In this document: positions 235 through 22,351 of the stretch, one piece after another
Numbering within the stretch: position 1 is the first letter of the stretch
Layout: the number at the start of each line of letters is the position of its first letter
Assembly (NCBI GenBank): GCA_963532505.1
Contig: CAUSLX010000001.1
Location: 1 to 37,314 of the forward strand
Source of the DNA: an uncultured Candidatus Saccharibacteria bacterium
Lineage (GTDB): Bacteria; Patescibacteriota; Saccharimonadia; Saccharimonadales; Saccharimonadaceae
Direction of reading: 5' to 3'
DNA: 37,314 nucleotides
Made by a program: the position numbers and the translations under genes
The notes under the pieces: generated by a model
Seen by the model: the letters and a program-made list of their open reading frames with translations, nothing else
What the model was told of the DNA's origin: nothing
Database searches by the model: none

Positions 235-1587
235 CTATTCATGCTTGCGATCCAGACTCATAAAGCGTAGGCGCTCTGGGTGGAAGTATAACTGAACTTT
301 ACCGACTGGGCCATTACGGTGCTTAGCGATGATTAAGTCTGTAATATTCTGTACTTCTGGGTTGTCGGGTTCGTAATATCCAGGGCGATAAATAAAGCTC
401 ACGATGTCGGCGTCCTGCTCAATGGAACCGGATTCACGCAGGTCGGCTAGTTGCGGAATTGGCGGCGTGCGTGATTCAACAGAACGGCTCAACTGACTCA
501 GGGCGATTAGCGGCACATTCAATTCGCGAGCAATAAGCTTCAGTCCGCGGGAAATTTCCGAAACTTCCTGAACGCGGTTTCCGTTGTGGTTTCCGTTGGC
601 CTGCATAAGTTGCAAATAGTCGACGATGATTAATCCCAATTGGTTCTCGTGGGCAATTCGACGCGCTTTAGTTCGCATCTCCAAAACTGATAATCCCGGC
701 GTGTCATCGATATAAATTGGTGCCTCAGCCATTTCTCCCATAGCCTCAGACAATTTAGCAAAATCTTCATCGCTCAGGTTTCCGGTGCGAATATTCCAGC
801 TATCAACACCCGACGCATCCGCCAACATGCGGTCGACCAGCTGTTCCTTACTCATCTCTAGGCTGAAAAATAGGACAGAATTTTTCTCAATAGTTGCCAC
901 ATTATAAGCCAAATTCGTCACCAGTGTCGTCTTACCCATGGCTGGACGTGCCGCCAGAATGATCAAGTCCGATTTTTGCAAACCAGCGGTCATATTATCC
1001 AGATCGCGATAGCCAGTACGAACTCCCCTGAGAGAACCTTTATTCTTACTGAGCTCTTCAATTCGGTCAAAACTATCTGTCAGAATGCTTTCCAGACTGA
1101 CCAAATCTTGCTTGGTTGATTGGTCCGACACGCTGAAAAGTTCAGCTTCGGCCTTCTCTAATAATTCCTGCGTGGTCGTCGATTCGTCATATCCAAGCTC
1201 GGAAATGTCACCGCTCGCTTTTATCAGACGCCTGCGAACCGCTGCTTGCGCAATCATCTCCGCGTAAGCCGATGCGTGCGCTGCCGTTGGGACGTAGTTC
1301 GTTAGCTCTGTCAGATATGCCGATCCGCCAACCAATTCCAGCTCGTCCTTTCGCTTCAATTCGTCGGTTAAGGTCAATAGGTCGACGGGCTTGTGTTTTT
1401 CAAATAATCGCATCATTCCAGCAAAAATCAGTCCGTGATTCTTGTCATAAAAATCACTAGGGTGAGTAATTTCTGCGGCGTCCGCCAAAACTTCCTCGTC
1501 AATTAAAACCGCCCCAAGCAAACTCTTTTCTGCGTCCAAATTTTGTGGTGGTATCTTCCCTTTTACTTCTTCGCTTTTATCTGCCAT
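235..1587 (-). CDS. dnaB: Replicative DNA helicase DnaB
   Basis: Motifs PPQNLDAE, Walker A AARPAMGKT, FSLEMS, IVDYLQL, LRESGSIEQDAD, IIAKHRNGP. ATG at 1587 overlaps the dnaX TGA; GGAGGA upstream. Confidence 0.98.
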   Translation of the reverse strand: MADKSEEVKGKIPPQNLDAEKSLLGAVLIDEEVLADAAEITHPSDFYDKNHGLIFAGMMRLFEKHKPVDLLTLTDELKRKDELELVGGSAYLTELTNYVPTAAHASAYAEMIAQAAVRRRLIKASGDISELGYDESTTTQELLEKAEAELFSVSDQSTKQDLVSLESILTDSFDRIEELSKNKGSLRGVRTGYRDLDNMTAGLQKSDLIILAARPAMGKTTLVTNLAYNVATIEKNSVLFFSLEMSKEQLVDRMLADASGVDSWNIRTGNLSDEDFAKLSEAMGEMAEAPIYIDDTPGLSVLEMRTKARRIAHENQLGLIIVDYLQLMQANGNHNGNRVQEVSEISRGLKLIARELNVPLIALSQLSRSVESRTPPIPQLADLRESGSIEQDADIVSFIYRPGYYEPDNPEVQNITDLIIAKHRNGPVGKVQLYFHPERLRFMSLDRKHE

Positions 1588-3035
1588 CAAATATCCTCCA
1601 GCTTAACTTCTTCGCCACCACCCATTAATTCTGCAATTTCCGCCAATTTTTCGTCCTCTGGCGGCTTCTTCTCTCCAATTATATCAATTTCCAAATCCAT
1701 CGCGGTTTCTTCTGAGATAATTTCTGAGATCAATGGTTTGTTTTTTGCGTCGTCCAGCTTTTTCTTATAAAACGCGGAACCTGCGTAAATTGTCAATTTT
1801 TCACCGTCAAACGACCACTGGCTTTTCTGCAATAATGACGCCAGCCCGAGGGATTTCTCCTTCGCTCTTTTAATGACTTTTTCCCAATTTAGCTCTAGTG
1901 GCGCGTCAGTTTTCTTTGGTTTTGTGGCAGGTTTTTTTGCTAGCTCGGCTGGTTTTTCTTCCTTTTCAATCGGCTTTTCTGTCGGTTTGGTTGGCTCTAC
2001 AGACTTAATTGGCGTTGGTTTTGCGGCAGGTTTTTGGGTCGCGGCTTGAGCTATATTTTTCTTTGGCGCGGCTGGCTTTCCTGTCGGCTGAGAATTGCTA
2101 TTCATAAATATCGTCAATAATTTCAAGTCTGGATGCGGGTGCCGATCAACCTCGATCAGTTGCTGAACCAACCCAATAAGATTCGGATTTTTCCGTAATC
2201 TATTGCGAGCAATTGACAATAATTGATGCGACACAACAACTGAATTCGCGCCACTATTTTCTAATTCCTGAAAGATGTTTAAGACTTTCTCGTTGTCGTC
2301 GGATGGATATGAATCCAACAAATTGCCGAGCATCGTCGCGTCGCTAAGCCCCAAATATTCGGTAACCATATTCGCCGTCAGTGGCTGGTCTGATGTTGCT
2401 AAAATCGACAATTGGTCAAGCGCACTAATGCCGTCACGGAATCCGCCACGGGAACGTTCAGCGATTAACCTGGCAGCATCCTCTTCAATTGCAAATCCTT
2501 CTTTTTTCGCTATATTCATTAACTGGCGCGTCATAATTTCCGTCGGAATTGGGCGGAAGAAAAATTGCTGGACACGGCTAAGAATGGTGGCTGGAAGTTT
2601 GTCGGCGTCGGTTGTAGCTAAGATAAACACCACGTGTTCTGGCGGTTCTTCCAGGGTTTTTAATAGCGCGTTAAATGCTGATTTTGACAGCATGTGAACT
2701 TCGTCGATGATATAAACTTTTTTCGGCGCAGAAACAGGCGCGACTTGGGCTTTTTCTCTTAAGGCTCGAATGTCGTCAACGCCGTTATTGCTGGCTGCGT
2801 CAATTTCAATAATATCCAAGTTTGAAGCGTCGTCGTCATATGGCAAATGGTTAATCTCGTGCGCCAGAATTCGCGCCACCGATGTTTTTCCCACGCCACG
2901 CGGTCCAGTCAACAAGTACGCATGAGCAATTTTTCCCTGCTCTAACGCTCGACGTAAAATACTAGTCACGTGATCTTGACCTAAAACTTCATCCAAACTG
3001 CGACTGCGATATTTACGATATAGCGCCTGACTCAT
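1587..3035 (-). CDS. dnaX: DNA polymerase III subunit gamma/tau
   Basis: ALYRKYRS, GPRGVGKT, EIDAASNNGVDDIR, IIDEVHML, FNALLKTLEEPP; P/K/A/T-rich linker before the C-terminal domain. Confidence 0.97.
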   Translation of the reverse strand: MSQALYRKYRSRSLDEVLGQDHVTSILRRALEQGKIAHAYLLTGPRGVGKTSVARILAHEINHLPYDDDASNLDIIEIDAASNNGVDDIRALREKAQVAPVSAPKKVYIIDEVHMLSKSAFNALLKTLEEPPEHVVFILATTDADKLPATILSRVQQFFFRPIPTEIMTRQLMNIAKKEGFAIEEDAARLIAERSRGGFRDGISALDQLSILATSDQPLTANMVTEYLGLSDATMLGNLLDSYPSDDNEKVLNIFQELENSGANSVVVSHQLLSIARNRLRKNPNLIGLVQQLIEVDRHPHPDLKLLTIFMNSNSQPTGKPAAPKKNIAQAATQKPAAKPTPIKSVEPTKPTEKPIEKEEKPAELAKKPATKPKKTDAPLELNWEKVIKRAKEKSLGLASLLQKSQWSFDGEKLTIYAGSAFYKKKLDDAKNKPLISEIISEETAMDLEIDIIGEKKPPEDEKLAEIAELMGGGEEVKLEDI

Positions 3036-3088
3036 CCCCTCATGCTCCTCATGAGATAATTATAGCAAACTATACCTTGAGACAGAAG

Positions 3089-3310
3089 TTAACAAATGTG
3101 ATTTCCGAGTATTCGAGATCGCATAAATACGATTATTATTGTAATAATGGCAGTAATTATGCAAGTTAATAACAGAGCCTTAGACTTCTTGCTAATTTTT
3201 TCTTTCTTAAGGATGAATATTGATGTAATTAGAGTCACCACTCCCAAGATGTATGGCAAGTATCGTGCCAGTACTATTGAAGTATTTAATAATATTGTAG
3301 TTAAGCTCAC
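3089..3310 (-). CDS. Small AT-rich membrane protein (2-3 hydrophobic segments)
   Basis: GTG start preceded by AAGGAGG; hydrophobic helices flanking a Lys-rich loop. Confidence 0.6.
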   Translation of the reverse strand: MSLTTILLNTSIVLARYLPYILGVVTLITSIFILKKEKISKKSKALLLTCIITAIITIIIVFMRSRILGNHIC

Positions 3311-3408
3311 TAGTAGCCTCCTTTGCTGTGAAAGTTTGATTTATATATATCAGTAATAGAGTGAAATTTCAAGCTATTTCATCAAAAATATATTGCAAAA
3401 ATAAGGTT

Positions 3409-4284
3409 TTAAAATAATGTTAATTGCTCTGTTGGTAAATCCAGCTCAATCTCTCTGTCAACTTTTTGCGCCCGATAGCCAATAAGCTTTTTAATATTGT
3501 AAGCCAGCAGCTGACTATCGTAATCAGTGATGACAATTGAGCCGATGACGCTGCGTACATGTCCGACCAATTGACTATAATCCTTCATTAAAACGACATG
3601 CGACAGATCAACACCAGCGGTTTGAAAATAATCTTCGCAAGGAATTAGCTCGGATTTCGGAAACGACACGCCAATTTTCTGCTCAATTTCAAGTAATTTT
3701 TGTCGCAATTCCCTTTCGCCGTCAGCACGGTCAAAAGGTTGTTTTATCAATTCCATCTTTTTGTGAACTGGCAGAGTTTCAGCTATTCCGTCCAGCTTGG
3801 AAATTTTCGCCTCGTACTGCCTGGCGATCAATGCCGAAGAAAACGTTTCTAATTTTATGGCTAATCGCGCTCCCTGTTCCAATAATCTCCGAATTCCGCG
3901 CTCTTCTTGCGAGATTCCGACTTTTATGACGTTCGGCGCGAAGTACGCCAAGTAAACAAAGTGCGGATTTTGATTGATTTTTTCTTGTTGGACGGAAACC
4001 GAACTGGCGTTATAAAATGCTGGATTAAAGCCAGTTTTGTCGCGGCATTTTAGGCAATTTTCATACTTTTCATCAACCGTGGCGTGGTCTGGGCAGATTT
4101 GGCTACGGCGATTCTCAAAATCCACCCAACCCGTGCAATATTTGACAGAAAAATCAAACTCAAGAGACAAATTTTGCTCGAACAATTCATGACGCTCAAT
4201 TTTACTGTCAACTTGACATTCAATAAAAGGCTTATTGTCAGCGTTAAAACTGGCGTAACTGAGCAAAAACTCGCTCGGTATCAT
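3409..4284 (-). CDS. DUF2797-like putative Zn-binding protein
   Basis: C..C..CxxC cluster, then VYLAYF...KVGIS...RLLEQGA pattern recalled for DUF2797. Confidence 0.7.
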   Translation of the reverse strand: MIPSEFLLSYASFNADNKPFIECQVDSKIERHELFEQNLSLEFDFSVKYCTGWVDFENRRSQICPDHATVDEKYENCLKCRDKTGFNPAFYNASSVSVQQEKINQNPHFVYLAYFAPNVIKVGISQEERGIRRLLEQGARLAIKLETFSSALIARQYEAKISKLDGIAETLPVHKKMELIKQPFDRADGERELRQKLLEIEQKIGVSFPKSELIPCEDYFQTAGVDLSHVVLMKDYSQLVGHVRSVIGSIVITDYDSQLLAYNIKKLIGYRAQKVDREIELDLPTEQLTLF

Positions 4285-4293
4285 AAGATTTCC

Positions 4294-4809
4294 TTATAAT
4301 GCAGCTTCGACTGCAGCCCAAGTTGCGTCAGGATTGTCTTCAGGGATGATGATTGTAACTTGGTCGCCGACGTTAATTCGGAAGTAAGTTACGCTAGCAA
4401 GCAAAATACGATATTCGCGTCCAGAAGCCTCGACGTAGTAAATTCCGTCGTGCTGGACAAGTGTTCCGATAACTTGCTTTCGAGGCACAGGACCGATTTG
4501 CTTATAGATAAAGCTGCCGTCTTCAGCGATTGTCAATTTCATCAGGTCACCTTCAACCAGCTTCGACTTTGAAGCGTAGTTAGCTGGGATCGGATAATTT
4601 TTGCCGTCTGGGCTAAGCATCATCTGGCCGTCAAATACGCCTTCGATAATCTTTCCTGTTACATCATCTGACGAATTTTTTGGCGTGACAACTTGTCCAT
4701 CGTCGCCAATAATACTAATCAATAATTCTTTTGCGGCAGCTAAATTGGTTTCCGCCTCTTGAATAAGTGTCCTCAGACGCTTAATTTGCTTTTCTGGTAA
4801 TTCAGACAT
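4294..4809 (-). CDS. Conserved hypothetical protein (N-terminal coiled coil plus two beta-rich repeats)
   Basis: 171-aa ORF with AAGGAA upstream; EGVFDG...PANYASKSKLVEGD motif. Confidence 0.75.
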   Translation of the reverse strand: MSELPEKQIKRLRTLIQEAETNLAAAKELLISIIGDDGQVVTPKNSSDDVTGKIIEGVFDGQMMLSPDGKNYPIPANYASKSKLVEGDLMKLTIAEDGSFIYKQIGPVPRKQVIGTLVQHDGIYYVEASGREYRILLASVTYFRINVGDQVTIIIPEDNPDATWAAVEAAL

Positions 4810-4999
4810 GGTTCTCGCAATTCCTTTGTCTATTTTTTATAATACTTAACTAATATATAGCATATCCTTACATTTATATCAAGTCGTGTCATTTGATTTT
4901 CTCTGATTTTCCACAGCGCTATAAGATATGGACGAAAAAGTGTTGCAAATTTTACTCTTGAAAATGATGTGCGGTTCGTGATATTAAGATTGGCTACAT

Positions 5000-5029
5000 A
5001 AAAATCACCGCCCAGAGCGGACGGTGATT
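5000..5029 (-). terminator. Intrinsic terminator after rplL
   Basis: Minus strand AATCACCGTCCGCTCTGGGCGGTGATTTTT: stem-loop plus U tract. Confidence 0.85.
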
Positions 5030-5059
5030 AAACGAAACAAATTGGCATTGTATAACAAA

Positions 5060-5437
5060 TTATGAAAGCTCGACAGTAGCGCCAGCGTCTTCCAAAGTTT
5101 TCTTTGCAGCTTCAGCTTCGTCTTTAGAAACTTTTTCCTTGACTGGGGCTGGAGCGCCGTCAACGATAGCTTTTGCTTCACCTAGACCTAGGCCGGTGAT
5201 TTCCTTGACAGCCTTGATGACTGCAACCTTCTGAGAACCAGCGTCTTTCAAAGTAACTGTGAACTCAGTTTTTTCGTCAGCAGCGGCAGCGTCACCACCA
5301 GCAGCTGGACCAGCAACAGCGACAGCTGCAGCAGCTGGCTCGATGCCGTATTCTTCTTTAAGATGATTTTTCAATTCGTTAACTTCTAGAACTGTCAATT
5401 TTACAAGTTCTTCAGCCAATTTCTTAATATCAGCCAT
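5060..5437 (-). CDS. rplL: 50S ribosomal protein L7/L12
   Basis: [17 protein letters not shown] hinge, [20 protein letters not shown]. Confidence 0.99.
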
Positions 5438-5502
5438 TGATATTCTCCTTTATTATTATATTGTTGCGATTGTTGCAACGTTACTAGTGTTGATTGCTAA
5501 AC

Positions 5503-6027
5503 TTAAGCAGTAGCTTTGGCTTCGATGCCGTCCAAAAGTCCGTGCAAATTGCCGCCAAGCGCGTTGACCGTGTCGTGTACTGGTGATAGCAATTGTGATA
5601 CCACTTGAGCAACGAGTTGGTCTTTGCTTGGTAGGCTTGCCAACGCCTTAACGTCAGCTTCGCTAATTGCCAAGCCTTCGCCCGAGAAGCCACCTGCAAG
5701 TTGTAATGCTGGATGTGTTTTTGCAAACGTGTCCAATACCTTTGCTGGCATAACTTCATCTTCGCTACTTACAGCGTAAACCAATTGACCAACCAATAAG
5801 CTGGTGTCGGTTTCTTTGTAAGTGTCGATTTCCTGAAGAGCTACGCGTACCAATCGGTTTTTAACAACCTTGATGGTAACGCCCGCTTCGCGAGCAGCCT
5901 TGCGTAGTTCTTGTAGGTCGGCAACGGTAAGGGTTTGATATCGAGCAAAAGCCGTACCCTTAGCGTCTTTTAATAGCTCTGTCAGTTCAGCAACCAAAGT
6001 TTGTTTTTTATCGCGTGAAATTGCCAT
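5503..6027 (-). CDS. rplJ: 50S ribosomal protein L10
   Basis: LTVADLQELR, KVVKNRL, LASLPSKDQL; directly upstream of rplL. Confidence 0.98.
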   Translation of the reverse strand: MAISRDKKQTLVAELTELLKDAKGTAFARYQTLTVADLQELRKAAREAGVTIKVVKNRLVRVALQEIDTYKETDTSLLVGQLVYAVSSEDEVMPAKVLDTFAKTHPALQLAGGFSGEGLAISEADVKALASLPSKDQLVAQVVSQLLSPVHDTVNALGGNLHGLLDGIEAKATA

Positions 6028-6088
6028 AAAAATCCTTTCTTTGATTGAGTTAATTTGTTATGTGCCAATTTGTTAACGTGCGGTAATG

Positions 6089-6210
6089 GAGAATCAAAAA
6101 ACGTCTTTGATTCTCGCACTACCAAAGACGTCAAATAAAACTGTTAGTTTCATCCCTCGGTGGCATTTTTATACTTGTTTTACGTTAAGTCGCCACTGTC
6201 TTTGGTAATG
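6089..6210 (-). promoter_or_regulatory. L10 leader (r-protein autoregulatory RNA with attenuator)
   Basis: CCAAAGACAGUGGC...GCCACCGAGG resembles the L10_leader core; followed by terminator ACGUCUUUG-loop-CAAAGACGU plus U tract. Confidence 0.8.
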
Positions 6211-6219
6211 TTCCAGACC

Positions 6220-6248
6220 ATTGTAGCAGAAATGACAACGAAAGACAA
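6220..6248 (-). promoter_or_regulatory. Sigma70-type promoter of rplJL
   Basis: TTGTCT-N17-TACAAT with extended TG. Confidence 0.7.
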
Positions 6249-6309
6249 GAGTTATGGCAATTATTTTCCAGCCGATTCAATCGCCTTATTTATCGCATTT
6301 TCGCCTAGC

Positions 6310-6337
6310 AAAAATCCCGCCAGAATCGACGGGATTT
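6310..6337 (-). terminator. Intrinsic terminator after rplA
   Basis: Minus strand AAATCCCGTCGATTCTGGCGGGATTTTT. Confidence 0.85.
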
Positions 6338-6357
6338 AATTGCCTGAAATATAAAGA

Positions 6358-7365
6358 TTACAGAGAGTTCTCTACTTTAATGCCAGGGCCCATAGTTGTG
6401 GCAATTGCGATGCTCTTAACGTAAACACCCTTTAAGCTGGATGGCTTTTGGGAGTTCAAGCTGGTTAAGAATGCGCGTGCGTTTTCTGACAATTTTTCAG
6501 CTCCGAATGATACTTTGCCGATTGACAAGTGAACGATGGCTTGCTTATCAACGCGGTATTCAACTTTTCCGGCTTTCGCTTCAGAAACGGCTTTAGCGAC
6601 GTCAGTAGCGACAGTGCCAGACTTTGGATTTGGCATCAAGCCGCGTGGGCCAAGCAAACGTGCGTATTTACCAAGCTTTGGCATGTACTGTGGAGTTGCG
6701 ACCAAAATGTCGAAGTTCAATTCTTCCTTGTCCAATTGGCTTAGGAATTCTTCGTCACCGATGATGTCAGCGCCAGCTTTTTTAGCGGCAGCGTGTTCTG
6801 ATTCTGGTGCAAAAACTGCTACGCGAACATCCTTACCTGTACCGTGTGGTAATGCTACGGTTGAGCGAATGTTTTGGTCAGCTTGGCGTGGGTCAACGCC
6901 TAGGCGGATGTGGATTTCAACGCTAGCATCAAACTTAACTGGGCTGGTTTCAGTGGCCAATTTCAAAGCTTCGTCTAAGCTGTACAATTTGTTCTTTTCA
7001 ACGTTTTTTGCAGCTTCTTGATATTTCTTACCGCGGCGCTCCAAGCGTGGACGAGTAACTGGCTTTGGACCCTTCTTTATGTGAGCCTCAGCATCGTCAG
7101 ACTGTGGAGTGGTGTCGCCAGCTTCCTTGCGAGCTTCCTTCTCTGCTTTTTCAGCAGCTTCATCTAGGGCTTTTTGGCTGCGCTTGCCAGACTTAGCGAC
7201 AACAGCTTCGCGCTCAGCAACAACGTCTTTGTCTTTGTTGTCGTGAGATTTGCTTGCGTCTGTAGCTTCTGCAATTGCTGCTTCAATTTCAGCGATTGTA
7301 TTTTTCTCACTGACTTCTAATTTTAGTTCTGCTGCTTTTTCTAGCAACTCGGCTTTCTTTGCCAT
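6358..7365 (-). CDS. rplA: 50S ribosomal protein L1 with ~105-aa N-terminal extension
   Basis: [38 protein letters not shown] at 7365 with AGAAAGGA RBS gives 335 aa. Confidence 0.97.
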
Positions 7366-9976: not shown

Positions 9977-10003
9977 AAAATAACCCCGAGAAGTCCGGGG
10001 CTA
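9977..10003 (-). terminator. Intrinsic terminator after rplK
   Basis: Minus strand TAGCCCCGGACTTCTCGGGGTTATTTT. Confidence 0.75.
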
Positions 10004-10023
10004 TCTGTTAAAAGTTCTGTAGA

Positions 10024-10449
10024 CTAGTCGACGACTTCAACGCCCATTGAGCGTGCTGATCCGGCTATAACTTTCATTGCTCCTTCGATGTCGATTGCGT
10101 TCAATTGGTCTTTTTTCGCCTCAGCGATTTCTTGCAATTGTGCGCGAGTAATCTTACCGACCTTGTCTGAGTGTGGCTTGCCACTACCCTTTTGGATTCC
10201 AGCTTTCTCACGAATCATGTCGTCAACTGGCTGACCAAGTGAGTTCCAAGTAAATGTTCGGTCTTCGTAAACTTGGATGTGAACAATTACGTCCTTACCC
10301 ATCATGTCTTTTGTAGCGTCATTGAATGGATTGATGAAATCCATCATGTTTAGTCCCCACTGACCAAGCGTTGATCCCACTGGAGGACCTGCTGTTGCTC
10401 GACCGGCTGGAATGCGTAATTTCAAATTACCAATAATTTTCTTTGCCAT
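10024..10449 (-). CDS. rplK: 50S ribosomal protein L11
   Basis: AGRATAGPPVGSTLGQ, IAGSARSMG; own TTGCAA-N17-TATAAT promoter upstream. Confidence 0.99.
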   Translation of the reverse strand: MAKKIIGNLKLRIPAGRATAGPPVGSTLGQWGLNMMDFINPFNDATKDMMGKDVIVHIQVYEDRTFTWNSLGQPVDDMIREKAGIQKGSGKPHSDKVGKITRAQLQEIAEAKKDQLNAIDIEGAMKVIAGSARSMGVEVVD

Positions 10450-10515
10450 AGTTCTTCCTTATAGTTTGTAGTGCGTAACTCGAATATTATATCGAAAAAT
10501 GCTTAAAATTGCAAG

Positions 10516-11061
10516 CTAAACTTTTTTAACCTGCAAGGCGTCCAGCTCGACTGGAGTATCGCGGCCAAACATGCTAACCATAACCTTCAAAGTGCCCTTA
10601 GACGCGTCAATTTCGCTCACGGCGCCGTCAAAGCCCTTGAATGGACCGTCGATAATTGAAACAACTTCGCCTTCTGAGAAGTCAATCTGATGCTTTGGCT
10701 CTTCAACGCCCATTCGCTTCTTAATTTTAGCAATTTCTTTTTCAGAAACTGGAGTTGGTGTAGTGTCGGCACCCACGAATCCTGTAACGCCCGGCGTGTT
10801 GCGGATGATGTACCAAGTTTCATCGGTCAATTTCATCTCAACTAAGACATAGCCCTGGAAGATCTTAGCTTCAACAATTTTACGCTTACCGTTGCGAATT
10901 TGAATTTGTTTTTCCTTTGGCACGATAACGTCAAAAATCTTATCGGCCATATCAACGCCGTTGATTCGCTGGCGGATTGATTCGGCAACTTTTTCTTCGT
11001 AGCCAGAATAGGTATGAATTGCATACCATTGCTTACTGTCATCGTATCGTTTTGAACTCAT
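10516..11061 (-). CDS. nusG: Transcription factor NusG
   Basis: WYAIHTYSGYE, RNTPGVTGFVG, KOW motif DGPFKGF, MFGRDTPVEL. Confidence 0.99.
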   Translation of the reverse strand: MSSKRYDDSKQWYAIHTYSGYEEKVAESIRQRINGVDMADKIFDVIVPKEKQIQIRNGKRKIVEAKIFQGYVLVEMKLTDETWYIIRNTPGVTGFVGADTTPTPVSEKEIAKIKKRMGVEEPKHQIDFSEGEVVSIIDGPFKGFDGAVSEIDASKGTLKVMVSMFGRDTPVELDALQVKKV

Positions 11062-12714: not shown

Positions 12715-13407
12715 CTATATGTATGGCGAATATTTTTTCAATTCATTTCGGTGGATTTTATAATGTGGGTCAAATTTGGCAACTTCATCCCAGAATTTCG
12801 TCGAGTGATTCATATGCCTGGTGTGGCATAATTCGTGGATAATTACGTAATCAATTAGCTCAAATGGTAAGTTCATCATCCCAATGTTCAAGCTAATCGT
12901 TCCAGATGAAGAGCAGCTTCCCCAGCGACTTGATGAGTGTGTGATTTTACTCCGAGCAAAAGAAAAGCCGTGTTCTTCCGCTAAAAACGACAATCGCCTC
13001 GGCAGATATGATTTGGCTTCTTTTCTGAGTGCGATCAGAATTTTACTGCGAATAAGTTGTTGGTTTGCGGCCGATTCGACAGATTCTGCTTCGTTGATTT
13101 CTACCAATATCTGCGTTCCGACGATTTTCACGCTTGAAGGTTTCGTAGTCGTTTGTATCAATAAATGATGGCTTTTGCCGATTTGCTGATTTTTCGTGTA
13201 AGAAAGTTTTTCTCTGTACTGAGAAGCTAATTCGCGGATTTGCTTTCGAGAGGTTTTAATCAATGCCTTTGCGGCCAACAGCGGCGCATATGGTGGCATT
13301 GTAATTTGTATTCGTCCATCTGGCGCAATTTTCAAACTAACAGTCTTCGCTAAGCTACGTTTTTTAACGACAATTTCTCCGAATTCTTCGTCGGCAATAA
13401 TTGTCAT
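12715..13407 (-). CDS. YgjP/DUF45-family Zn metallohydrolase
   Basis: RWGSCS, YVIIHELCH (HExxH), NHS..FW. Confidence 0.9.
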   Translation of the reverse strand: MTIIADEEFGEIVVKKRSLAKTVSLKIAPDGRIQITMPPYAPLLAAKALIKTSRKQIRELASQYREKLSYTKNQQIGKSHHLLIQTTTKPSSVKIVGTQILVEINEAESVESAANQQLIRSKILIALRKEAKSYLPRRLSFLAEEHGFSFARSKITHSSSRWGSCSSSGTISLNIGMMNLPFELIDYVIIHELCHTRHMNHSTKFWDEVAKFDPHYKIHRNELKKYSPYI

Positions 13408-13409
13408 AA

Positions 13410-13952
13410 CTAACCTATGTTAATGCGATTTCCGGCAATTGGGCGGCGTGGAGCTTCTGGGCGACTGGCGCCGATTTGCTTAAGAACGGTGCGAGCCTGG
13501 CTACTTAAGGTGTGCCGACCGCTAATTACGATGTAAGATTCGCTGCTGTGTGGTGCTGAGAACTGCTTCAATCGTCGTTCAAAAGATTCGTCATTTCCGC
13601 CATAAGTCTTTATCCAGCGATGTTTGGCTGTGGTGGGATCGGTTTGCACCCAAACAAATAGGACTTTATATCCATATTCCCTGGCAAGGCGATTGATACG
13701 CATACGATTCGTGCGCTGATCAGTCGATCCGTCCAAAATAACAGTTTGCTTAGTCTTCAAAAATTCTTCCAAAAGCGACAATGTTGCATCAGAAATGGTT
13801 TTTGTGTTGTCCGTAAAAACTTCAAATTGTCGAGAACTTACCACTGGAGAATTGAAAATCTTCGCAAATTCTACAGCGAATTGCGTCTTTCCTGAACCTG
13901 GCGCACCAACCATGGCGATAATATGCGGAAGTGAAGGTGATAAAGGTTTCAT
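13410..13952 (-). CDS. P-loop kinase-like protein (AAA_33)
   Basis: GAPGSGKT, VILDG. Confidence 0.85.
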   Translation of the reverse strand: MKPLSPSLPHIIAMVGAPGSGKTQFAVEFAKIFNSPVVSSRQFEVFTDNTKTISDATLSLLEEFLKTKQTVILDGSTDQRTNRMRINRLAREYGYKVLFVWVQTDPTTAKHRWIKTYGGNDESFERRLKQFSAPHSSESYIVISGRHTLSSQARTVLKQIGASRPEAPRRPIAGNRINIG

Positions 13953-17081: not shown

Positions 17082-20000
17082 ATGAATGATGATAAGAAAA
17101 TAATAAAAACCACAAAGAGGATTTATCCTCAAATATATTCTTATATTCTGCCAGATATTCCAGCAAATAAAGGTTGGCAAAAAGTCGGATATACAGAACG
17201 TAAAGACGTTGATTCGCGAATATTAGAACAGACTAAGACTGCGGCTGTAAAATTGCGATATGAGAAATTGTGGAGCGCTAGCTCTTTTTCTAACGCAACT
17301 CACGAATTTTTCAAAGATAAAGATCTCCATAAATATTACGTAAAGAATGGAATCGAGAAGAGTAAAAAGCAGGACGATGGCGGATTGGGCGAAGAATGGT
17401 TTTACTTCAATGGTACGCCAGAAAAATCTAAAGAATTGTTTGATGATTACGCTAATGGCAATTTATTCAGTCGATCTTCCGAGAAAAGTCCGTATAAGTT
17501 GAGAAAGGAGCAAGAACGTGCCGTTTCTCAAACTCTTGCTTATGCAGAATCTCACCAGACTACAGATTTTTCTTCACCAAATAAAGAAGCGGAATTTTTA
17601 TGGAACGCAAAACCGCGTTTTGGTAAAACTCTCTCTTCTTACGATTTTGCAAAAAAGTTTAACGCTAAGAATGTTTTGATAGTTACTAATCGTCCAGCAA
17701 TCGCTAATTCGTGGTTTGATGATTTCGATAAATTCATTGATGGATATTATTTTATTTCGACGGCAGATTCTTTAAAAGAACGCGAAACTTTGTCTAGGTA
17801 TGATTTTCTTAATAAAGCCAATTCATCAAGCGAAGATAGGCAGATAACTTTCTTAAGTCTACAGGACTTGAAGGGCGGTAAAGTTTTTGGTGGACCACAT
17901 AACAAATTAAAATGGGTGGCGGATCTTAAGTGGGATTTGTTAATTATAGATGAGGCTCATGAAGGTGTTGATACAGACAGAACTAATGAAGCTTTTGGAA
18001 AAATTAAGCGCAGGTTTACGCTGCATTTATCTGGAACACCTTTTAAGGCAATAGCGGATGGACATTTTAAGGACAATCAGATATTCAACTGGACTTATAT
18101 TGATGAGCAAAAAGCTAAGCAAGAAGAACTGAAGAACTTGGATGATTCTGGTGATCACGTTAATCTGCCAGATATGAGATTATTTACCTACAAGATGTCT
18201 GATATTATCTCTGATCGGCTTGAAAAAGGCATGGAGATGGACGATGAAAATATCGATTATGCTTTTGAGTTGAATGAAATGTTTGCAACAGACGCAAGCG
18301 GCAAGTTTATTCATGAGGATGATATTTCAACATTCTTAAATCAATTAACTTCAAATGAAAAATATCCATTCTCAACCCCTGAATTAAGAGATCAATTAAA
18401 ACACACGTTTTGGCTGGTAGGAAACCGTGTCGCTTCAGCAAAGGCTATGGAGAAAATGTTGCGCCATCACCCAGTATTTAGTGAATATAAAATAGTGCTT
18501 GCCGCGGGCAATGGAAGGTCTTCTCAGTCTGACAATAATTCATCTGAAGATGAGATGAAGGATACTGCAGCTAACGAGAAAGCTTTGAGCAGGGTTAAGA
18601 AGGCTATCAAGGAGAATGACCGCACCATAACCTTATCTGTGGGGCAACTGACAACTGGAGTTACTGTTAAAGAATGGTCTGCTGTACTTATGTTGTCTGA
18701 TATCAAATCCGAGTCGTTGTATATGCAGGCAATATTCCGTTCTCAGAACCCGTATGAATTTATAGATAATAACGGCAACCTCTGTCGTAAAAAGTCGGCT
18801 TATGTCTTTGATTTCTCGCCGAATCGTGTGCTTAAAGTTTATGACAAGTTTGCCAACAGTCTATTGGCGGACGTAGCCAGAGGTGAAGCTACAGAAAAAA
18901 TCAGAGAGCAGAACGTAGCAGAATTGCTGAACTACTTCCCTGTCTTGGCGGAAGATGAATCTGGTAAGATGATCGAATTGGACGCAGAGCAAGTTTTGAC
19001 CTTCCCTAAAGCTATCGTCGCAAAGGAGGTTGTGAACCGTGGTTTTGTTACTAATTTGTTATTTGTAAACATTAACAACGTCTTCAATATTCCTTCTGAG
19101 GTGATTGCGGCACTGAATAAGGCTCATTCAACTAGCGACACTGATAAACAGACTAAAAGCGAAGAAGTTCAACACGATCCAGATCGTAAGAAGAATCGAG
19201 ACCACAGGATATCTGTAAATAAGGATAAACTGCTCGGTAATAAGGTTTACACTTCAAGAATGCAGGATATTGTGTTGTCTGCGGTTGATTCGGATATGGA
19301 GGCAGATGAGATCGTTGAAAAAATTACCGCTGACTGCATGCCTGAAATATCTGAGCTCCTTGGGAAATATAAAGATTCCTATTCCCCTTCAAAGGCAGAG
19401 CTTGACAATATTAAAAGTGGGCTCCGTGAAAAGGTCAAAGAAGCGGCAGAAGAGTTTGTGTCTGGCGATATAGCAGACAGAATAGCTCAGGATAAATTAG
19501 CGGATAGCCTGGCGAATATCATTGAGAAAGATCTCCCTAACGATACCGTAATTCGTGAAGAAGAGGATAATTACGAAAAAGAAGAAAAGTCTGAAATGGA
19601 CCAAATTAGGAGGAAATTGCGTACATTTACCCGCGCTATCCCTTCATTCATTATGGCTGCCAGCACAGATGTAGATAAAATCACGTTAGATAACATCGAG
19701 GATACCGTTTCTGACAAGGATTTTGAGGAATTATTTACAGAAAAAGACAGCGAACCATTTACAAAAGACGATTTCCGTAAAATTCGCGGCCCATGGACAA
19801 ATCCAGAAACCGGCGAAACATTTGAAGGATTTTTTGATCGCTATACATTTAACGCTGCCATTCGAGAGTTTGAGGAGAAGCGACAGGAAATTGCGGATTA
19901 CCTTTCCCCTGGCGCCAAAGAAGACATTTTCTCTTACATTCGCCCATTAAAAACAAATCAGATTTTTACACCAAGGATAGTTGTAAATAAAATGCTTGAT

Positions 20001-21389
20001 TTGTTGGAAGAAAATAATCCTGGCATATTTGAAGATCCAAATGCGACATTTGCGGATTTATATGTAAAGAGTGGTCTATACCTTACAGAAATAGCAAAGA
20101 GGTTAAACAGAGGACTTGAGAGTAAAATACCAGATAAGTCGGAAAGAGTAAAACACATCCTTGAGAAACAGCTTTATGGGTTTGCGCCAACGAATATTAT
20201 CTACAATATCGCACGCAAGTACATTTATGGAACATTTTCAGGTATTGATGATAGTAATCTTAAGCAATTAGATTTAACAGACGCGTTTAAAAAGGGAGAA
20301 ACATTAAATATGAAATTTACTGCAGTTGTGGGTAATCCGCCATATCAGGAAACTACTAGCAAAACAGAGTCTCAAACGCAGAGTAATTCCAACTGGATTT
20401 ATCAATACTTCCAAGACGCTGCAGATAAAATAGGTTCTCTCTCCTGCCTAATTTATCCATTTGGCGGCTGGTTTGATGCACCTGATAGGCTTGGTGGCCT
20501 AGGTAGTCGAATTTTAAGTGATGGACACACGATTTCTGTGGATGCTTATGAGGGTACGACTGATAGGCGTGCTTGGTACAGAACCGACCGCGATCCACAG
20601 CCAATCTTTGGGAACACCGCTAACCTTTCCGCTGGAGTTTCAATTGTTTTGAGAGATAGGGATCACTATCATCAGACATACAAGTATTCGAATAGAATTT
20701 ATACCGATGATACGGCGGAGGTTAATATAGCCGATGTCGATTCGCTCGCACCAAATCCGGCATTCCTCAAAATCAGTAATAAACTTGCCGGTAAAAAACT
20801 GAGTCAAAGAATTAAAAAAGGGATGTTTGGGATAGAATCTAATTTTGCTGAACAAAATCCTGATAAAGTATCGTTTAGCAAATCGGATTGGAGCAATCCT
20901 ATACAGTTATTGGTTAACGACAAAAGTGGTTCATCTGGGCGCGCAACTTTATTCTGGATGGATAGATCAAATCTGCCAAAAGGTGACGAGTATGTTGAAA
21001 AGTATAAAGTAATCACAACATCGGCTTATCCCAAAAAATCCATAGTGTCTGGCGATCCTACAGTTAAAAATGTTATACATCGCGCTAGTGAGCTAATTGA
21101 AATAATGGATAAAAATTCCGCTTTTGGCGCTAGCAGAATAGCATTACTTATGTCGGACAGCAAGAAAGAATGCGAGAATTTCATCAAATATGCTAAGACA
21201 GGCTTCTTTGCTGCGCTTATGCTTCAGGAGCCAAATCGTCGTTCTACATTTGGGTTTATTATTCCTGACCAAGATTTTACCGATAATTCAGATATTGATT
21301 GGAATGCATCGCTTAGTGAAATAGATAAGCAGTTATTCGATAAATACAACATAACTGCTGAGGAGCAGAAATTTCTTGGAGTCGCATGA
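17082..21389 (+). CDS. Single-chain restriction-modification-like protein: GIY-YIG/T5orf172-like nuclease + SF2 helicase + N6-adenine MTase + TRD
   Basis: IYSY..KVGYT..RI.EQ..EEWF; AKPRFGKT, DEAH, LSGTP, LTTGVTV, QAIFRSQNP; QIFTP, KSGLY, GNPPYQ; C-terminal PDQDFT..SDIDW..ID.QL..KY; GGAGG RBS. Confidence 0.88.
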   Translation: MNDDKKIIKTTKRIYPQIYSYILPDIPANKGWQKVGYTERKDVDSRILEQTKTAAVKLRYEKLWSASSFSNATHEFFKDKDLHKYYVKNGIEKSKKQDDGGLGEEWFYFNGTPEKSKELFDDYANGNLFSRSSEKSPYKLRKEQERAVSQTLAYAESHQTTDFSSPNKEAEFLWNAKPRFGKTLSSYDFAKKFNAKNVLIVTNRPAIANSWFDDFDKFIDGYYFISTADSLKERETLSRYDFLNKANSSSEDRQITFLSLQDLKGGKVFGGPHNKLKWVADLKWDLLIIDEAHEGVDTDRTNEAFGKIKRRFTLHLSGTPFKAIADGHFKDNQIFNWTYIDEQKAKQEELKNLDDSGDHVNLPDMRLFTYKMSDIISDRLEKGMEMDDENIDYAFELNEMFATDASGKFIHEDDISTFLNQLTSNEKYPFSTPELRDQLKHTFWLVGNRVASAKAMEKMLRHHPVFSEYKIVLAAGNGRSSQSDNNSSEDEMKDTAANEKALSRVKKAIKENDRTITLSVGQLTTGVTVKEWSAVLMLSDIKSESLYMQAIFRSQNPYEFIDNNGNLCRKKSAYVFDFSPNRVLKVYDKFANSLLADVARGEATEKIREQNVAELLNYFPVLAEDESGKMIELDAEQVLTFPKAIVAKEVVNRGFVTNLLFVNINNVFNIPSEVIAALNKAHSTSDTDKQTKSEEVQHDPDRKKNRDHRISVNKDKLLGNKVYTSRMQDIVLSAVDSDMEADEIVEKITADCMPEISELLGKYKDSYSPSKAELDNIKSGLREKVKEAAEEFVSGDIADRIAQDKLADSLANIIEKDLPNDTVIREEEDNYEKEEKSEMDQIRRKLRTFTRAIPSFIMAASTDVDKITLDNIEDTVSDKDFEELFTEKDSEPFTKDDFRKIRGPWTNPETGETFEGFFDRYTFNAAIREFEEKRQEIADYLSPGAKEDIFSYIRPLKTNQIFTPRIVVNKMLDLLEENNPGIFEDPNATFADLYVKSGLYLTEIAKRLNRGLESKIPDKSERVKHILEKQLYGFAPTNIIYNIARKYIYGTFSGIDDSNLKQLDLTDAFKKGETLNMKFTAVVGNPPYQETTSKTESQTQSNSNWIYQYFQDAADKIGSLSCLIYPFGGWFDAPDRLGGLGSRILSDGHTISVDAYEGTTDRRAWYRTDRDPQPIFGNTANLSAGVSIVLRDRDHYHQTYKYSNRIYTDDTAEVNIADVDSLAPNPAFLKISNKLAGKKLSQRIKKGMFGIESNFAEQNPDKVSFSKSDWSNPIQLLVNDKSGSSGRATLFWMDRSNLPKGDEYVEKYKVITTSAYPKKSIVSGDPTVKNVIHRASELIEIMDKNSAFGASRIALLMSDSKKECENFIKYAKTGFFAALMLQEPNRRSTFGFIIPDQDFTDNSDIDWNASLSEIDKQLFDKYNITAEEQKFLGVA

Positions 21390-22351
21390 ACGAAGAGTCC
21401 GTCGATATTATAGAGAATACCATTCGCCGCCACGGCGACTTGTTGGATGTTCTTTTGTTGGATAGGACGCGGACGACGAAGCGAAAATCGCATAATGTCT
21501 TGTGGGCTACCGACTCTTACGTCGGTCATAATCCAAAGCAAGAAATATCGATTTTAGACATCACTGGGTCAAATACGTATTTAATACAGCCCAGAATTGC
21601 TAAATCAAAGGAAGAGCAAAAAAGCCGCACAAAGGATAAGGCTGAGGTTTTTACGCCAAAGAATATTGTTAGTCAAATGAATAGACAGATAGACTGGAGC
21701 TCAGGAAATTGGCCTGCAGACGAGAGTAATTGGAAGGATTACGTCAAAGAACTTCGTTTGGAGATAACCTGTGGTGAGGCGCCGTTTATAGTCGGTCGAT
21801 ACAATGCCGCCAGCGGAAAAAAAGTGTTGAAACTGTCTGACAGAGTGGGATTTTTAGACCGTAAACTTCAAGTTGTCGGTTCGTATTGTAATGATAAGAA
21901 AGAATGGCTGGAATGGGCGATTGTTGCTTTTCAATGCTCTTACGGATATGAATGGCAAGGTGATAATCTTCTTCTGGCCAGAGAGAACCTTTTATACACT
22001 TTCATCGACTACTGGAATGACAAATTTCCTAACGATAAGATAAATCTTGACAGGAAAATATCAAAAGAAAAAATGGAAATGTTATTGCGGGTTGCGGAAA
22101 TTATTTCTTGGAACATTTTCCAGATGGACGGAATTAAAAACGTAATACCAATGAGTTGTCGTCATGAAGTGATAGAAAAAGAAATCCCCCCTATGGTCAA
22201 ATTATGGGGCGAATCTCCAAAGATTATTAAGAGTGAGTGTGCTGGGTGCAAAAATAATAACCATTTTAAGCATAATGGCAAGTATGTCTTTATTATGGAT
22301 TGGGAAAAGGGAAAACCAGTTAAATTTATAAACTTAATGAAGGCGGAATAA
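21386..22351 (+). CDS. Partial (SAM-binding half) DNA methyltransferase subunit
   Basis: KAEVFTP (motif X), LEITCGEAPF (I), YGYEWQ (II), FQMDG (III); no NPPY; C-terminal CxH..CxxC..H; ATGA overlap with the upstream gene. Confidence 0.8.
   Translation: MNEESVDIIENTIRRHGDLLDVLLLDRTRTTKRKSHNVLWATDSYVGHNPKQEISILDITGSNTYLIQPRIAKSKEEQKSRTKDKAEVFTPKNIVSQMNRQIDWSSGNWPADESNWKDYVKELRLEITCGEAPFIVGRYNAASGKKVLKLSDRVGFLDRKLQVVGSYCNDKKEWLEWAIVAFQCSYGYEWQGDNLLLARENLLYTFIDYWNDKFPNDKINLDRKISKEKMEMLLRVAEIISWNIFQMDGIKNVIPMSCRHEVIEKEIPPMVKLWGESPKIIKSECAGCKNNNHFKHNGKYVFIMDWEKGKPVKFINLMKAE

Follow-up and report, generated by a model that had tools for sequence, protein, structure and literature searches.

A candidate internal translation start that would supply one NPPY half-methylase to both a helicase-nuclease fusion and an orphan partner gene

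The stretch of DNA analyzed here, referred to as the window, comprises the first 37,314 nucleotides of contig CAUSLX010000001.1 (assembly GCA_963532505.1, 710 kb) from an uncultured Candidatus Saccharibacteria bacterium. It carries a two-gene system which consists of a long open reading frame (ORF), P0001, and a smaller downstream gene, P0004 (hereafter gene 2), whose start codon overlaps the stop codon of P0001. Based on its domains, P0001 is a candidate restriction (and methylation) enzyme, in which a T5orf172 nuclease-like domain, a superfamily 2 (SF2) helicase, the N-terminal half of a methylase (the N-half), and a C-terminal half containing the catalytic NPPY motif and the target-recognition domain (TRD; together the C-half) follow one another in that order. 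The focus of the effort herein is an in-frame ATG located at the junction of the N-half and the C-half. This internal start probably releases the C-half as a separate subunit for gene 2, with the full-length protein acting as the restriction enzyme, an interpretation that is largely supported by comparative sequence evidence and by structural models.

Table 1 Features of the two-gene system in the window.
Feature	Coordinates	Strand	Basis or content
Full-length ORF P0001, 1435 aa	17082..21389	+	ORF list and translation
T5orf172 (GIY-YIG-like) domain, aa 19-110, putative nuclease	17136..17411	+	Pfam PF10544
SF2 helicase/translocase region, aa 138-638	17493..18995	+	Pfam, PADLOC, PHROG
Resident methylase N-half, aa 927-1076	19860..20309	+	Alignment A3, AF2 model
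Shine-Dalgarno-like AAGGGAG, encoded by linker Lys-Gly-Glu	20292..20298	+	Sequence
11-nt A/T-rich spacer AAACATTAAAT	20299..20309	+	Sequence; low local folding energy
Proposed internal start ATG, Met1077	20310..20312	+	Aligned-codon comparison, free homologues
C-half P0005, 359 aa, proposed shared subunit	20310..21389	+	Catalytic motif IV onward and target-recognition domain
NPPY catalytic motif (motif IV)	20334..20345	+	Translation
ATGA overlap, P0001 stop with gene 2 start	21386..21389	+	Sequence, ORF coordinates
Gene 2 (P0004), 321 aa, orphan methylase N-terminal half	21386..22351	+	PADLOC, AF2 model

The domain assignments of P0001 are based on profile matches and a structural model. The first 140 residues match Pfam PF10544 at 21.7 bits (cut-off 20, E 3e-4) and match no Mrr or PD-(D/E)xK family in Pfam. 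Residues 138-321 match Pfam ResIII (2.3e-16), the PADLOC Type IIG model REase_MTase_IIG (PDLC03626) covers residues 296-638, and PHROG 16 (DNA helicase) matches the helicase region. Further downstream, the Pfam Eco57I domain (PF07669) is found on residues 1056-1150 with a score of 39.4 bits against a cut-off of 25.3, and it scores 32.6 bits on the C-half alone. Methylases of the gamma class carry their motifs in the order X, I-III, and IV (NPPY), followed by a C-terminal TRD. P0001 agrees with this order, since IFTPR, FADLYVKSGLY, YGFAPT, and GNPPY are followed by a C-terminal region of 240 residues. The motifs of the N-half, namely NQIFTPR (motif X), the motif-I-like FADLYVKSGLY, and YGFAPT, are kept in 28 homologues in which N59, Q60, I61, T63, P64, D92, K96, S97, and G98 are invariant (alignment A3), and the N-half terminates in the linker KKGETLN. 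Residues G8, N9, P10, P11, and Y12 of the C-half are likewise invariant (alignment A1). An AlphaFold2 (AF2) model of the N-half joined to the C-half, with a predicted local distance difference test score (pLDDT) of 88.3, has three strands before the NPPY strand and matches CamA (8cxw_B, E 2.8e-16, template modeling score about 0.5), M.BseCI (6e-11), and M.TaqI (8e-9), as well as BrxX, LlaBIII (4xqk_A, E 3.7e-9), and LlaGI (5ffj_B). The A4 profile retrieved nothing from the PDB sequences at E 0.01 and only weak rows at E up to 10, a PDB sequence search returned nothing for P0001 or P0004, and NCBIfam holds no family for either protein. Taken together, the motif order, the Eco57I match, and the fold matches indicate that the long protein holds a complete gamma-class adenine methylase with its TRD.

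Gene 2 appears to be an incomplete methylase. It matches the PADLOC model MTase_II PDLC03390 (1.9e-81), whereas no Pfam family was found for it even at E up to 10. The family of its homologues is very large (7998 of 8000 scored candidates passed), and one source labels a homologue "restriction endonuclease subunit M". Gene 2 contains AEVFTP (motif X) and the motif-I-like LEITCGEAPF, and the family conserves KAEVFTP, LEITCGEAPY, and a C-terminal Cys/His cluster; NPPY is absent from both the gene 2 sequence and the family alignment. When the AF2 model of gene 2 (pLDDT 91) was compared using VIA-align, it resembled MmeI (5hr4_J, Z 8.8, root-mean-square deviation 3.5, 154 aligned positions) and residues 786-1012 of LlaBIII (4xqk_A, Z 7.3), in addition to DrdV, CamA, and HsdM, with the likeness lying in the N-terminal helical and S-adenosylmethionine (SAM)-binding part of the methylase domains. 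VIA-align Z scores of 7 to 9 are in a range that is possible for a common arrangement, and they were given weight only because the top rows were all DNA methylases; Foldseek found no match of the gene 2 model to the PDB at E <= 0.001. Judged by its model, gene 2 is thus the N-terminal half of a methylase without the catalytic half. This agrees with an earlier annotation of the window made from its letters alone (the sequence-only reading), which had proposed that the internal product is the very part that gene 2 lacks. The motifs of gene 2 (X and I-like) and those of the C-half (NPPY onward) are complementary subsets.

The DNA preceding the C-half has the appearance of a translation start. Bases 20290-20299 read aaaagggaga and bases 20300-20309 read aacattaaat, after which the sequence continues ATG AAA TTT ACT GCA GTT GTG GGT AAT CCG CCA TAT. 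The arrangement of a Shine-Dalgarno (SD)-like AAGGGAG, an A/T spacer, and an in-frame ATG is therefore exactly as the sequence-only reading had described it. The ATG is codon 1077 of 1435, since (20310-17082)/3 = 1076, and translation from it gives the predicted product of 359 residues that begins MKFTAVVGNPPYQ and starts eight residues ahead of NPPY. The 17 nt upstream of the ATG pair with a generic anti-SD sequence with a duplex energy of -8.6 kcal/mol, the best value among the 23 in-frame ATG contexts of the ORF and one that the 22 others do not attain. The strength of AAGGGAG equals that of the best real gene starts in the window, where sequences such as AAAGGAG, TGGAGGA, and AAAGGAGG lie 5-8 nt before the clearest starts. 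In addition, a 60-nt segment around the ATG has a folding energy of -3.1 kcal/mol, as compared to a mean of -8.1 kcal/mol for the remainder of the ORF (z = 1.5), and 5% of control windows are equally open. The internal site is more than would be expected by chance. The KKGE of the linker is found at the same distance in the close homologues P0247, P0248, and P0259, and in locus L067.

To compare the junction across the family, four pieces of the window proteins were placed by tblastn in the best 80 of 522 confirmed loci, which together with the window gives 81 loci. The C-half lies within a helicase ORF in 57 of these, and the codon aligned with Met1077 is ATG in 43, GTG in seven, and TTG in two (52/57 start codons). 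Three more helicase fusions have a Leu codon there (CTC in two, TTA in one) with ATG as the preceding codon. All nine fusions of the C-half to a gene 2 homologue and all three fusions to an N-half only have ATG at the junction. An Ile codon is found in none of the 57 helicase fusions, though a change from ATG to ATA is as easy as one from ATG to GTG. Furthermore, all eight junction Val codons (seven helicase fusions and L047) are GTG, as compared to a GTG share of 5-54% among all Val codons of those ORFs, and the eight loci are scattered over several separate places of the C-half tree.

The same position was examined in protein-level samples, which overlap in part. The first consisted of 120 longer homologues, 118 of which have the NPPY box. 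Among 90 homologues of at least 1000 residues, the junction residue is Met in 73, Leu in nine (eight with Met just upstream), Val in five, Ile in two (both with Met just upstream), and Phe in one; among 25 homologues of 640-800 residues, Met is present in 24. The second consisted of 150 representatives clustered at 50% identity, of which 106 were scorable. The 33 long forms among them have Met in 19, Val in seven, Ile after Met in two, Leu in two, and other residues in three, and the 37 mid-length forms have Met in 27, Met one residue earlier in four, Leu in two, Val in one, and other residues in three. In weak profile matches anchored on NPPY, DrdV has Arg and M.TaqI has Glu opposite Met1077, from which it follows that the fold itself does not require Met. 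These comparisons suggest that the junction start is usually retained, with losses. The sequence-only reading had asked for conservation of the SD and the Met in fused homologues; the start codon is conserved, and so is the SD in those lineages that use one.

The latter point is demonstrated by the ribosome-binding signals. Counted over every fusion state, with the free forms, the junction SD is stronger than that of any other in-frame ATG in the ORF in 37 of the 81 loci, and none of the 25 Bacteroidota loci (phyla taken from record titles and tree labels) are among those 37. Bacteroidota make little use of SD sequences. Outside of the Bacteroidota, the mean SD energy is -7.5 at the junction (n = 55) versus -7.0 at the helicase ORF's own start (n = 50), and within the Bacteroidota it is -0.6 (n = 25) versus -1.2 (n = 24). 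The Bacteroidota junctions are A-rich upstream (0.53 versus 0.33 for the ORF), KANNNND and NLKEN being examples of their linkers. In the other lineages, [KE]-G-[GDE] or E-E recurs in the linkers and is encoded as AGGAG or GAGGAG. Synonymous resampling of 41 non-Bacteroidota fusions gave -5.4 kcal/mol as compared to the observed -7.9 kcal/mol, and codon choice favors the SD at p<=0.5 in 35 of the 41 loci and at p<=0.1 in 14. In 59 of 66 fusions, the mRNA folds less at the junction than over the remainder of the ORF (mean z 0.84; Wilcoxon p 3e-10, a value that is indicative only because the loci are related). The junction signals thus fit the mode by which each host lineage starts translation. 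At the level of sequence, an in-frame start codon, a ribosome-binding signal, and open mRNA, the features by which internal-start genes are recognized, are conserved among the homologues.

The same start codon and SD could also serve a separate transcript, in which case the C-half and gene 2 would have an mRNA of their own from a promoter inside the helicase/N-half coding region. Transcription, and not ribosome entry on the long mRNA, would then determine the two forms. A sigma-70-like match is found at 19965-19993 (+), about 320 nt upstream of the ATG (TTTACA, 17 nt, TAAAAT; 10/12), and a sub-operon of two genes would agree with the order of C-half and gene 2 and with their ATGA overlap. The region is, however, no richer in promoter-like matches than shuffled sequences (22 versus 17.7 +/- 4.5). 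We consider a dedicated transcript improbable, and it is a variant of the internal-start explanation more than an alternative, and the two are not exclusive.

If the C-half is a unit of its own, it should also be found alone, and the sequence-only reading had pointed to homologous loci with a separate MKF..GNPPY ORF as a check. Such genes do occur. More than 60 free proteins of 359-366 residues share 50-71% identity with P0005 over 99-100% of its length, some of them on contigs of more than 100 kb, and in the alignment all of them open with M-K-F-x-x-[VC]-x-G-N-P-P-Y-Q. The PADLOC stand-alone MTase_II model PDLC03375 (348 positions) aligns to residues 1077-1431 of P0001 at profile positions 9-340. 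In the locus sample, the C-half is free in 12 of 81 loci, counting L047 (which has a broken helicase frame upstream) and two contig-end cases. It is joined to the N-half only in three of the 81 loci, and it is fused in frame behind a gene 2 homologue in nine (L008, L011, L020, L038, L045, L056, L064, L072, and L079). Free C-half genes are present in L006, L007, L009, L028, L041, L083, and others. In L028 (Apilactobacillus), the gene order of the window is split into two genes at exactly the junction point. Where the order is gene 2, C-half, and helicase, as in L007 (Lachnospiraceae MC2017), the ORF of helicase and N-half has its stop within about 10-20 codons of the position aligned with the window junction. 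A metagenome scan with P0005 returned two loci only, the organism's own copy and L083, a metagenome contig that encodes gene 2 (36% identity), a free 363-residue C-half (65%), and a helicase (48%).

The loci with a gene-2-C-half fusion encode a helicase-N-half protein without a TRD, which therefore needs a C-half in trans and is the mirror image of the arrangement in the window. The conserved ATG inside the gene-2-C-half fusions would supply that trans C-half. The C-half tree (79 sequences) tracks neither taxonomy nor fusion state. For example, it pairs a C-half from Christensenellaceae (L047) with one from Proteiniphilum (L068), and one from Alloprevotella (L031) with one from Erysipelotrichaceae (L049). 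This suggests that the NPPY-TRD cassette has been exchanged between systems and phyla, and its conserved ends, MKFDxVxGNPPYQ and SDIDW..EID.QLY.KY, would be natural recombination points. Both the helicase-N-half proteins without a TRD of their own and the mosaic tree fit the proposal of the sequence-only reading that one TRD serves both enzymes.

Several loci have unusual arrangements of the C-half. The locus L005:544-11047, from an uncultured Akkermansia sp., has three copies, one of which is fused to the helicase (ORF 1555-5487) and two of which are free downstream (5790-6839 and 10001-11047) with a 754-residue ORF between them. Both free copies start ATG AAA TTC/TTT..GGCAATCCACC, and the locus has the look of a single system with several alternative specificity cassettes. 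In L039:9458-13473 (Treponema sp.), the N-half and C-half form a stand-alone complete methylase of about 510 residues with ATG at the junction, preceded by a short gene-2-like ORF and followed by a separate helicase gene. Some loci appear decayed, with a C-half that is stopped after 32 residues (L048:10001-10099) or 178 residues (L055:2539-3075), or a helicase ORF that is broken (L047:6935-7748, L050:1075-2661, L041:2151-2646, and L052); these six loci were retained in the counts.

The proposed association of gene 2 with the C-half is supported by gene context, by natural fusions, and by a complex model. A gene-2-like partner adjoins the system in 74 of the 81 loci, and five of the other seven are cut by contig ends. 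The 74 partners consist of 64 that were found with gene 2 of the window and 10 that were found with a shorter homologue of 228 residues first met in L013. This short version of about 228 residues (GEVFTP, FLEPSAGDGNF) lacks the Cys/His-rich tail and replaces the 320-residue form in L013:5963-6649, L024, L071, L017, L029, L069, L026, L048, L039, and L067, and its sub-family includes Streptococcus mitis/oralis and Pseudoramibacter. As Rosetta-stone evidence, the nine in-frame gene-2-C-half fusions suggest that the two partners act together as a single methylase. In the L038 fusion, the Pfam Eco57I domain crosses the gene-2/C-half junction (residues 197-388, profile positions 3-171).

A complex of gene 2 and the C-half was then modeled using alignments of 38 and 26 rows, respectively, with SAM present but unscored. 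The pair scored 0.93 in three runs, as compared to 0.01 for the best of three controls; a score of 0.93 was attained by 58 of 80 solved complexes and by two of 110 mismatched pairs. The runs agreed in at least 93% of contacts, with a pLDDT of at least 84 for the partner. The closest modeled contacts are between residues 122-129 of gene 2 (RLEITCGE) and residues 1-13 of the C-half (MKFTAVVGNPPYQ), which we read as the strand-1/strand-4 pairing of the methylase sheet. The binding of the fragment by gene 2 that the sequence-only reading had predicted is thus supported, at the level of prediction, by the nine fusions and by the modeled motif-I strand beside the MKFTAVVGNPPY strand. These results indicate that gene 2 would complete the C-half into an adenine methylase.

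A free C-half might instead be mainly a regulator that titrates gene 2 or occupies recognition sites and thereby dampens restriction. There is a precedent in McrBS, an internally initiated C-terminal product of mcrB that is reported to withdraw McrC from the active complex (PMC12707154, PMC12602166). The C-half has the catalytic NPPY, however, gene 2 has the SAM-binding motifs, and the natural fusions give a complete Eco57I-type domain, for which reason a productive enzyme is the simpler reading. Moreover, gene 2 would otherwise be without a catalytic partner in the window. A mainly regulatory role is accordingly regarded as very improbable.

Several observations weigh against internal initiation and a shared C-half. 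The loci are related, having been chosen as the best 80 of 522 confirmed matches, and their counts are not independent events. In the window, the 11-nt spacer exceeds the 5-8 nt of the clearest gene starts, and the SD is largely set by the linker peptide KKGETLN, with codon choice adding little (synonymous resampling p = 0.33); the case therefore depends on the family-wide comparison. Among RNA sequencing runs, none was found that contains the stretch, and the one run sharing 0.07 of its words may be DNA. Within that comparison, two of the 57 helicase fusions have no start codon at or beside the junction (CTG in L046, CTT in L057). A start at or near the junction is also missing from P0315 and P0352 in the protein sample and from 3/33 long and 3/37 mid-length clustered forms. 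GTG, TTG, and CTG are each one step from ATG, and the codon pattern could partly be the result of recent mutation. The fusion state switches at least 14 times on the C-half tree, and the closest relatives are both free (<=71%) and fused (64%; up to 80% besides the near-identical copy). Because switching is so frequent, any single fusion, that of the window included, could be young and its start a leftover. With respect to the pairing, the complex model may pass by way of solved unsplit methylases, as a predictor tends to rejoin the halves of a fold that it already knows; the score thus speaks for likeness and not for binding. A profile comparison of gene 2 with the resident N-half by hhalign gave a weak likeness only (probability 27.6% over 20 columns), and we do not claim that they are close paralogues.

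The junction features could also be explained without any internal initiation. The Met and the purine- or A-rich linker would then be leftovers of repeated fusion, or features of an inter-domain linker, and gene 2 would act on the full-length protein, where it could displace the resident N-half (a switch from restriction to methylation) or bind elsewhere. Frequent fusion and fission would provide the leftovers, and linkers rich in K, E, G, N, and D yield SD-like or A-rich DNA anyway, as the resampled sequences still average -5.4 kcal/mol. The codon choice of the window, which adds nothing significant, and the few fusions that lost the start codon yet keep intact ORFs are also consistent with it. 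Leftovers should decay, however, and 55 of the 57 helicase fusions keep a start at or beside the junction even though identity among their C-halves has fallen to 24-30%. Ile, likewise a conservative one-step substitute for Met, never occurs at the position in the DNA set, and where it occurs in the protein sets there is always a Met directly before it or a few residues upstream. The composition of the linker shifts with the host's mode of translation start, the SD is as strong as those of true starts in the same loci and is favored by codon choice in 35/41 loci, and unsplit relatives have Arg or Glu at the position of Met1077. On this evidence, we find it unlikely that internal initiation is absent.

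The preferred reading, in which the internal start feeds gene 2, can be set out as follows. The gamma-class N6-adenine methylase domain would be split in function between motif III and motif IV, with the C-half (NPPY, the later motifs, and the TRD; residues 1077-1435) serving as a shared catalytic and specificity module. Initiation at 17082 would give the 1435-residue protein, presumably an ATP-driven restriction enzyme, and initiation at AAGGGAG-11 nt-ATG 20310 would give the 359-residue C-half alone. The free C-half would bind gene 2, an orphan SAM-binding N-half, such that the motif-I strand lies beside the MKFTAVVGNPPY strand and completes a Rossmann-like sheet. The resulting nuclease-free methylase would have the same specificity as the restriction enzyme and would protect the host DNA. 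Because of the ATGA overlap, a ribosome reaching the end of the C-half could reinitiate on gene 2, so that the two partners would be made in similar amounts. A small hairpin, CTGCTGAGGAGCAG, lies at 21355-21368, 18 nt ahead of the gene 2 ATG, and contains GAGGAG; a second GGAG lies 4 nt ahead of the same ATG. The hairpin could make translation of gene 2 depend on ribosomes coming from the C-half frame. The analysis itself establishes the sequence features, their conservation over three fusion states and many phyla, the homology and fold of the two halves, and the natural gene-2-C-half fusions. From these we infer a short protein that exists on its own, a heterodimer with methylase activity, a long protein that restricts, and a coupled translation of the two partners.

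We are also cautiously inclined toward a broader view of the family. Relatives of the C-half form 988 clusters at 50% identity across many phyla. They may belong to a widespread class of ATP-dependent restriction-modification systems that is built on a mobile NPPY and TRD half-methylase cassette common to two SAM-binding halves, one on a nuclease-helicase for restriction and the other a small free protein for protection. Selection would keep the internal start in either fusion, and a swap of the cassette, or extra free copies as in L005, would re-target both activities in one step.

The genes that flank the system in the window are housekeeping genes, with GT4/GH57 upstream and TPR, holB-like, pseudouridine synthase, and class I (Trp/Tyr-type) tRNA synthetase genes downstream. 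About 3 kb upstream are genes for a YgjP-like metallopeptidase and an AAA_33/zeta-toxin-like kinase, at 12715-13407 (-) and 13410-13952 (-). With regard to an alternative genetic code, all ORFs are open under table 11 and the neighboring housekeeping genes read normally. The nearest relatives are in Candidatus Saccharibacteria, and no second C-half copy was found in the organism's own genome. We considered whether the fused ORF could be an assembly artefact and rejected this, because L082, a separate metagenome assembly of a near-identical organism, has the same fused ORF. When L082:1213-6476 is compared with 17082-22351 of the window, the N-half and C-half are 100% identical, while the helicase part is 97.9% and gene 2 is 97.5% identical. 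Either the methylase core is under stronger constraint or it was exchanged recently.

If the proposal is true, the system would be a third way to keep cutting and protection on one target, beside the S subunits of Type I and the shared Mod of Type III, and one that divides the methylase's very catalytic fold and shares the half responsible for catalysis and DNA reading. It would also be a rare bacterial internal start that is conserved across phyla and has a clear reason for existing, with a built-in natural control, since one and the same junction can be followed in free genes, in fusions to one partner, and in fusions to the other. Thousands of genes annotated as "restriction endonuclease subunit M" or "Eco57I methylase domain protein" would be halves of one enzyme, and gene callers would miss one protein per fused locus. 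A single cassette could then be a handle with which to re-target a methylase and a restriction enzyme together. The idea is directly testable, as fused forms occur in cultivable hosts (Streptococcus mitis/oralis, Pseudoramibacter, Helcococcus, Salinicoccus, and Flectobacillus). Among these, the S. mitis/oralis homologues (L013 and L024) have a GTG at the junction with GAGGAGG, L026 is from Helcococcus bovis, and L043, from Flectobacillus roseus, is of the type without an SD.

A literature search found no paper describing a gamma-class methylase that is split and shares its NPPY-TRD half, nor one reporting an internal start in such a gene, where REBASE and most subscription journals were outside of its scope. 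Parts of the arrangement are known from other systems. In Type I systems, HsdS is common to M2S and R2M2S, and in Type III systems, Mod is common to Mod2 and Res-Mod. The likeness to the window is that one DNA-reading module would serve protection and restriction, so that the two specificities cannot drift apart. The module proposed here differs in that it also bears the catalytic NPPY half, cut between motifs III and IV, and in that it would be supplied from inside a larger ORF and not from a gene of its own. M.AquI and M.EcoHK31I are naturally split C5 methylases with two polypeptides per enzyme, and the small subunit of EcoHK31I is encoded inside the large gene in another reading frame. Unlike the window system, these are cytosine-C5 enzymes in which neither half is known to be common to a second partner, and they are not known to be linked to a helicase-nuclease. 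CamA, M.BseCI, and M.TaqI, the best structural matches, have a C-terminal TRD like that of the window's methylase, but they are single-chain, stand-alone enzymes of about 10-13% identity, and where the counterpart of Met1077 is readable, it is another residue (Glu in M.TaqI).

The closest likeness in overall architecture is to the Type ISP enzymes LlaGI and LlaBIII, whose single polypeptide is described as running from a nuclease through an SF2 helicase and a gamma-class adenine methylase to a TRD (PMC3553950, PMC2790903). P0001 has the same single-polypeptide domain order and matches both structures. The Type ISP nuclease is Mrr (PD-(D/E)xK), whereas that of P0001 is T5orf172/GIY-YIG-like; according to one of these papers, relatives with helicase domains use other nucleases such as GIY-YIG (PMC3553950). 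Type ISP enzymes are described as self-contained single polypeptides, while the window system has an adjacent orphan N-half gene and a candidate internal start within the methylase. A T5orf172/GIY-YIG protein is also encoded in the DnmA-YeeB-YeeC cluster, a conserved cluster of defense islands, of Bacillus subtilis and Vibrio crassostreae, together with an MmeI-like adenine methylase and an SF2 helicase (PMC9973331). In that study, these are three separate genes with a complete methylase, no split or half-methylase partner is described, and the B. subtilis cluster gave no phage protection. With respect to the internal start, McrBS is the C-terminal product of mcrB and resembles the short product of the window in that an in-frame start within a restriction gene gives a C-terminal protein that takes part in complex assembly (PMC12707154, PMC12602166). 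As described there, McrBS is a regulator without a DNA-binding domain, whereas the short product of the window would contribute DNA binding and catalysis to a proposed second enzyme. The Type ISP-like order, the principle of a shared specificity module, and the internal start of mcrB are thus known parts of the arrangement proposed here.

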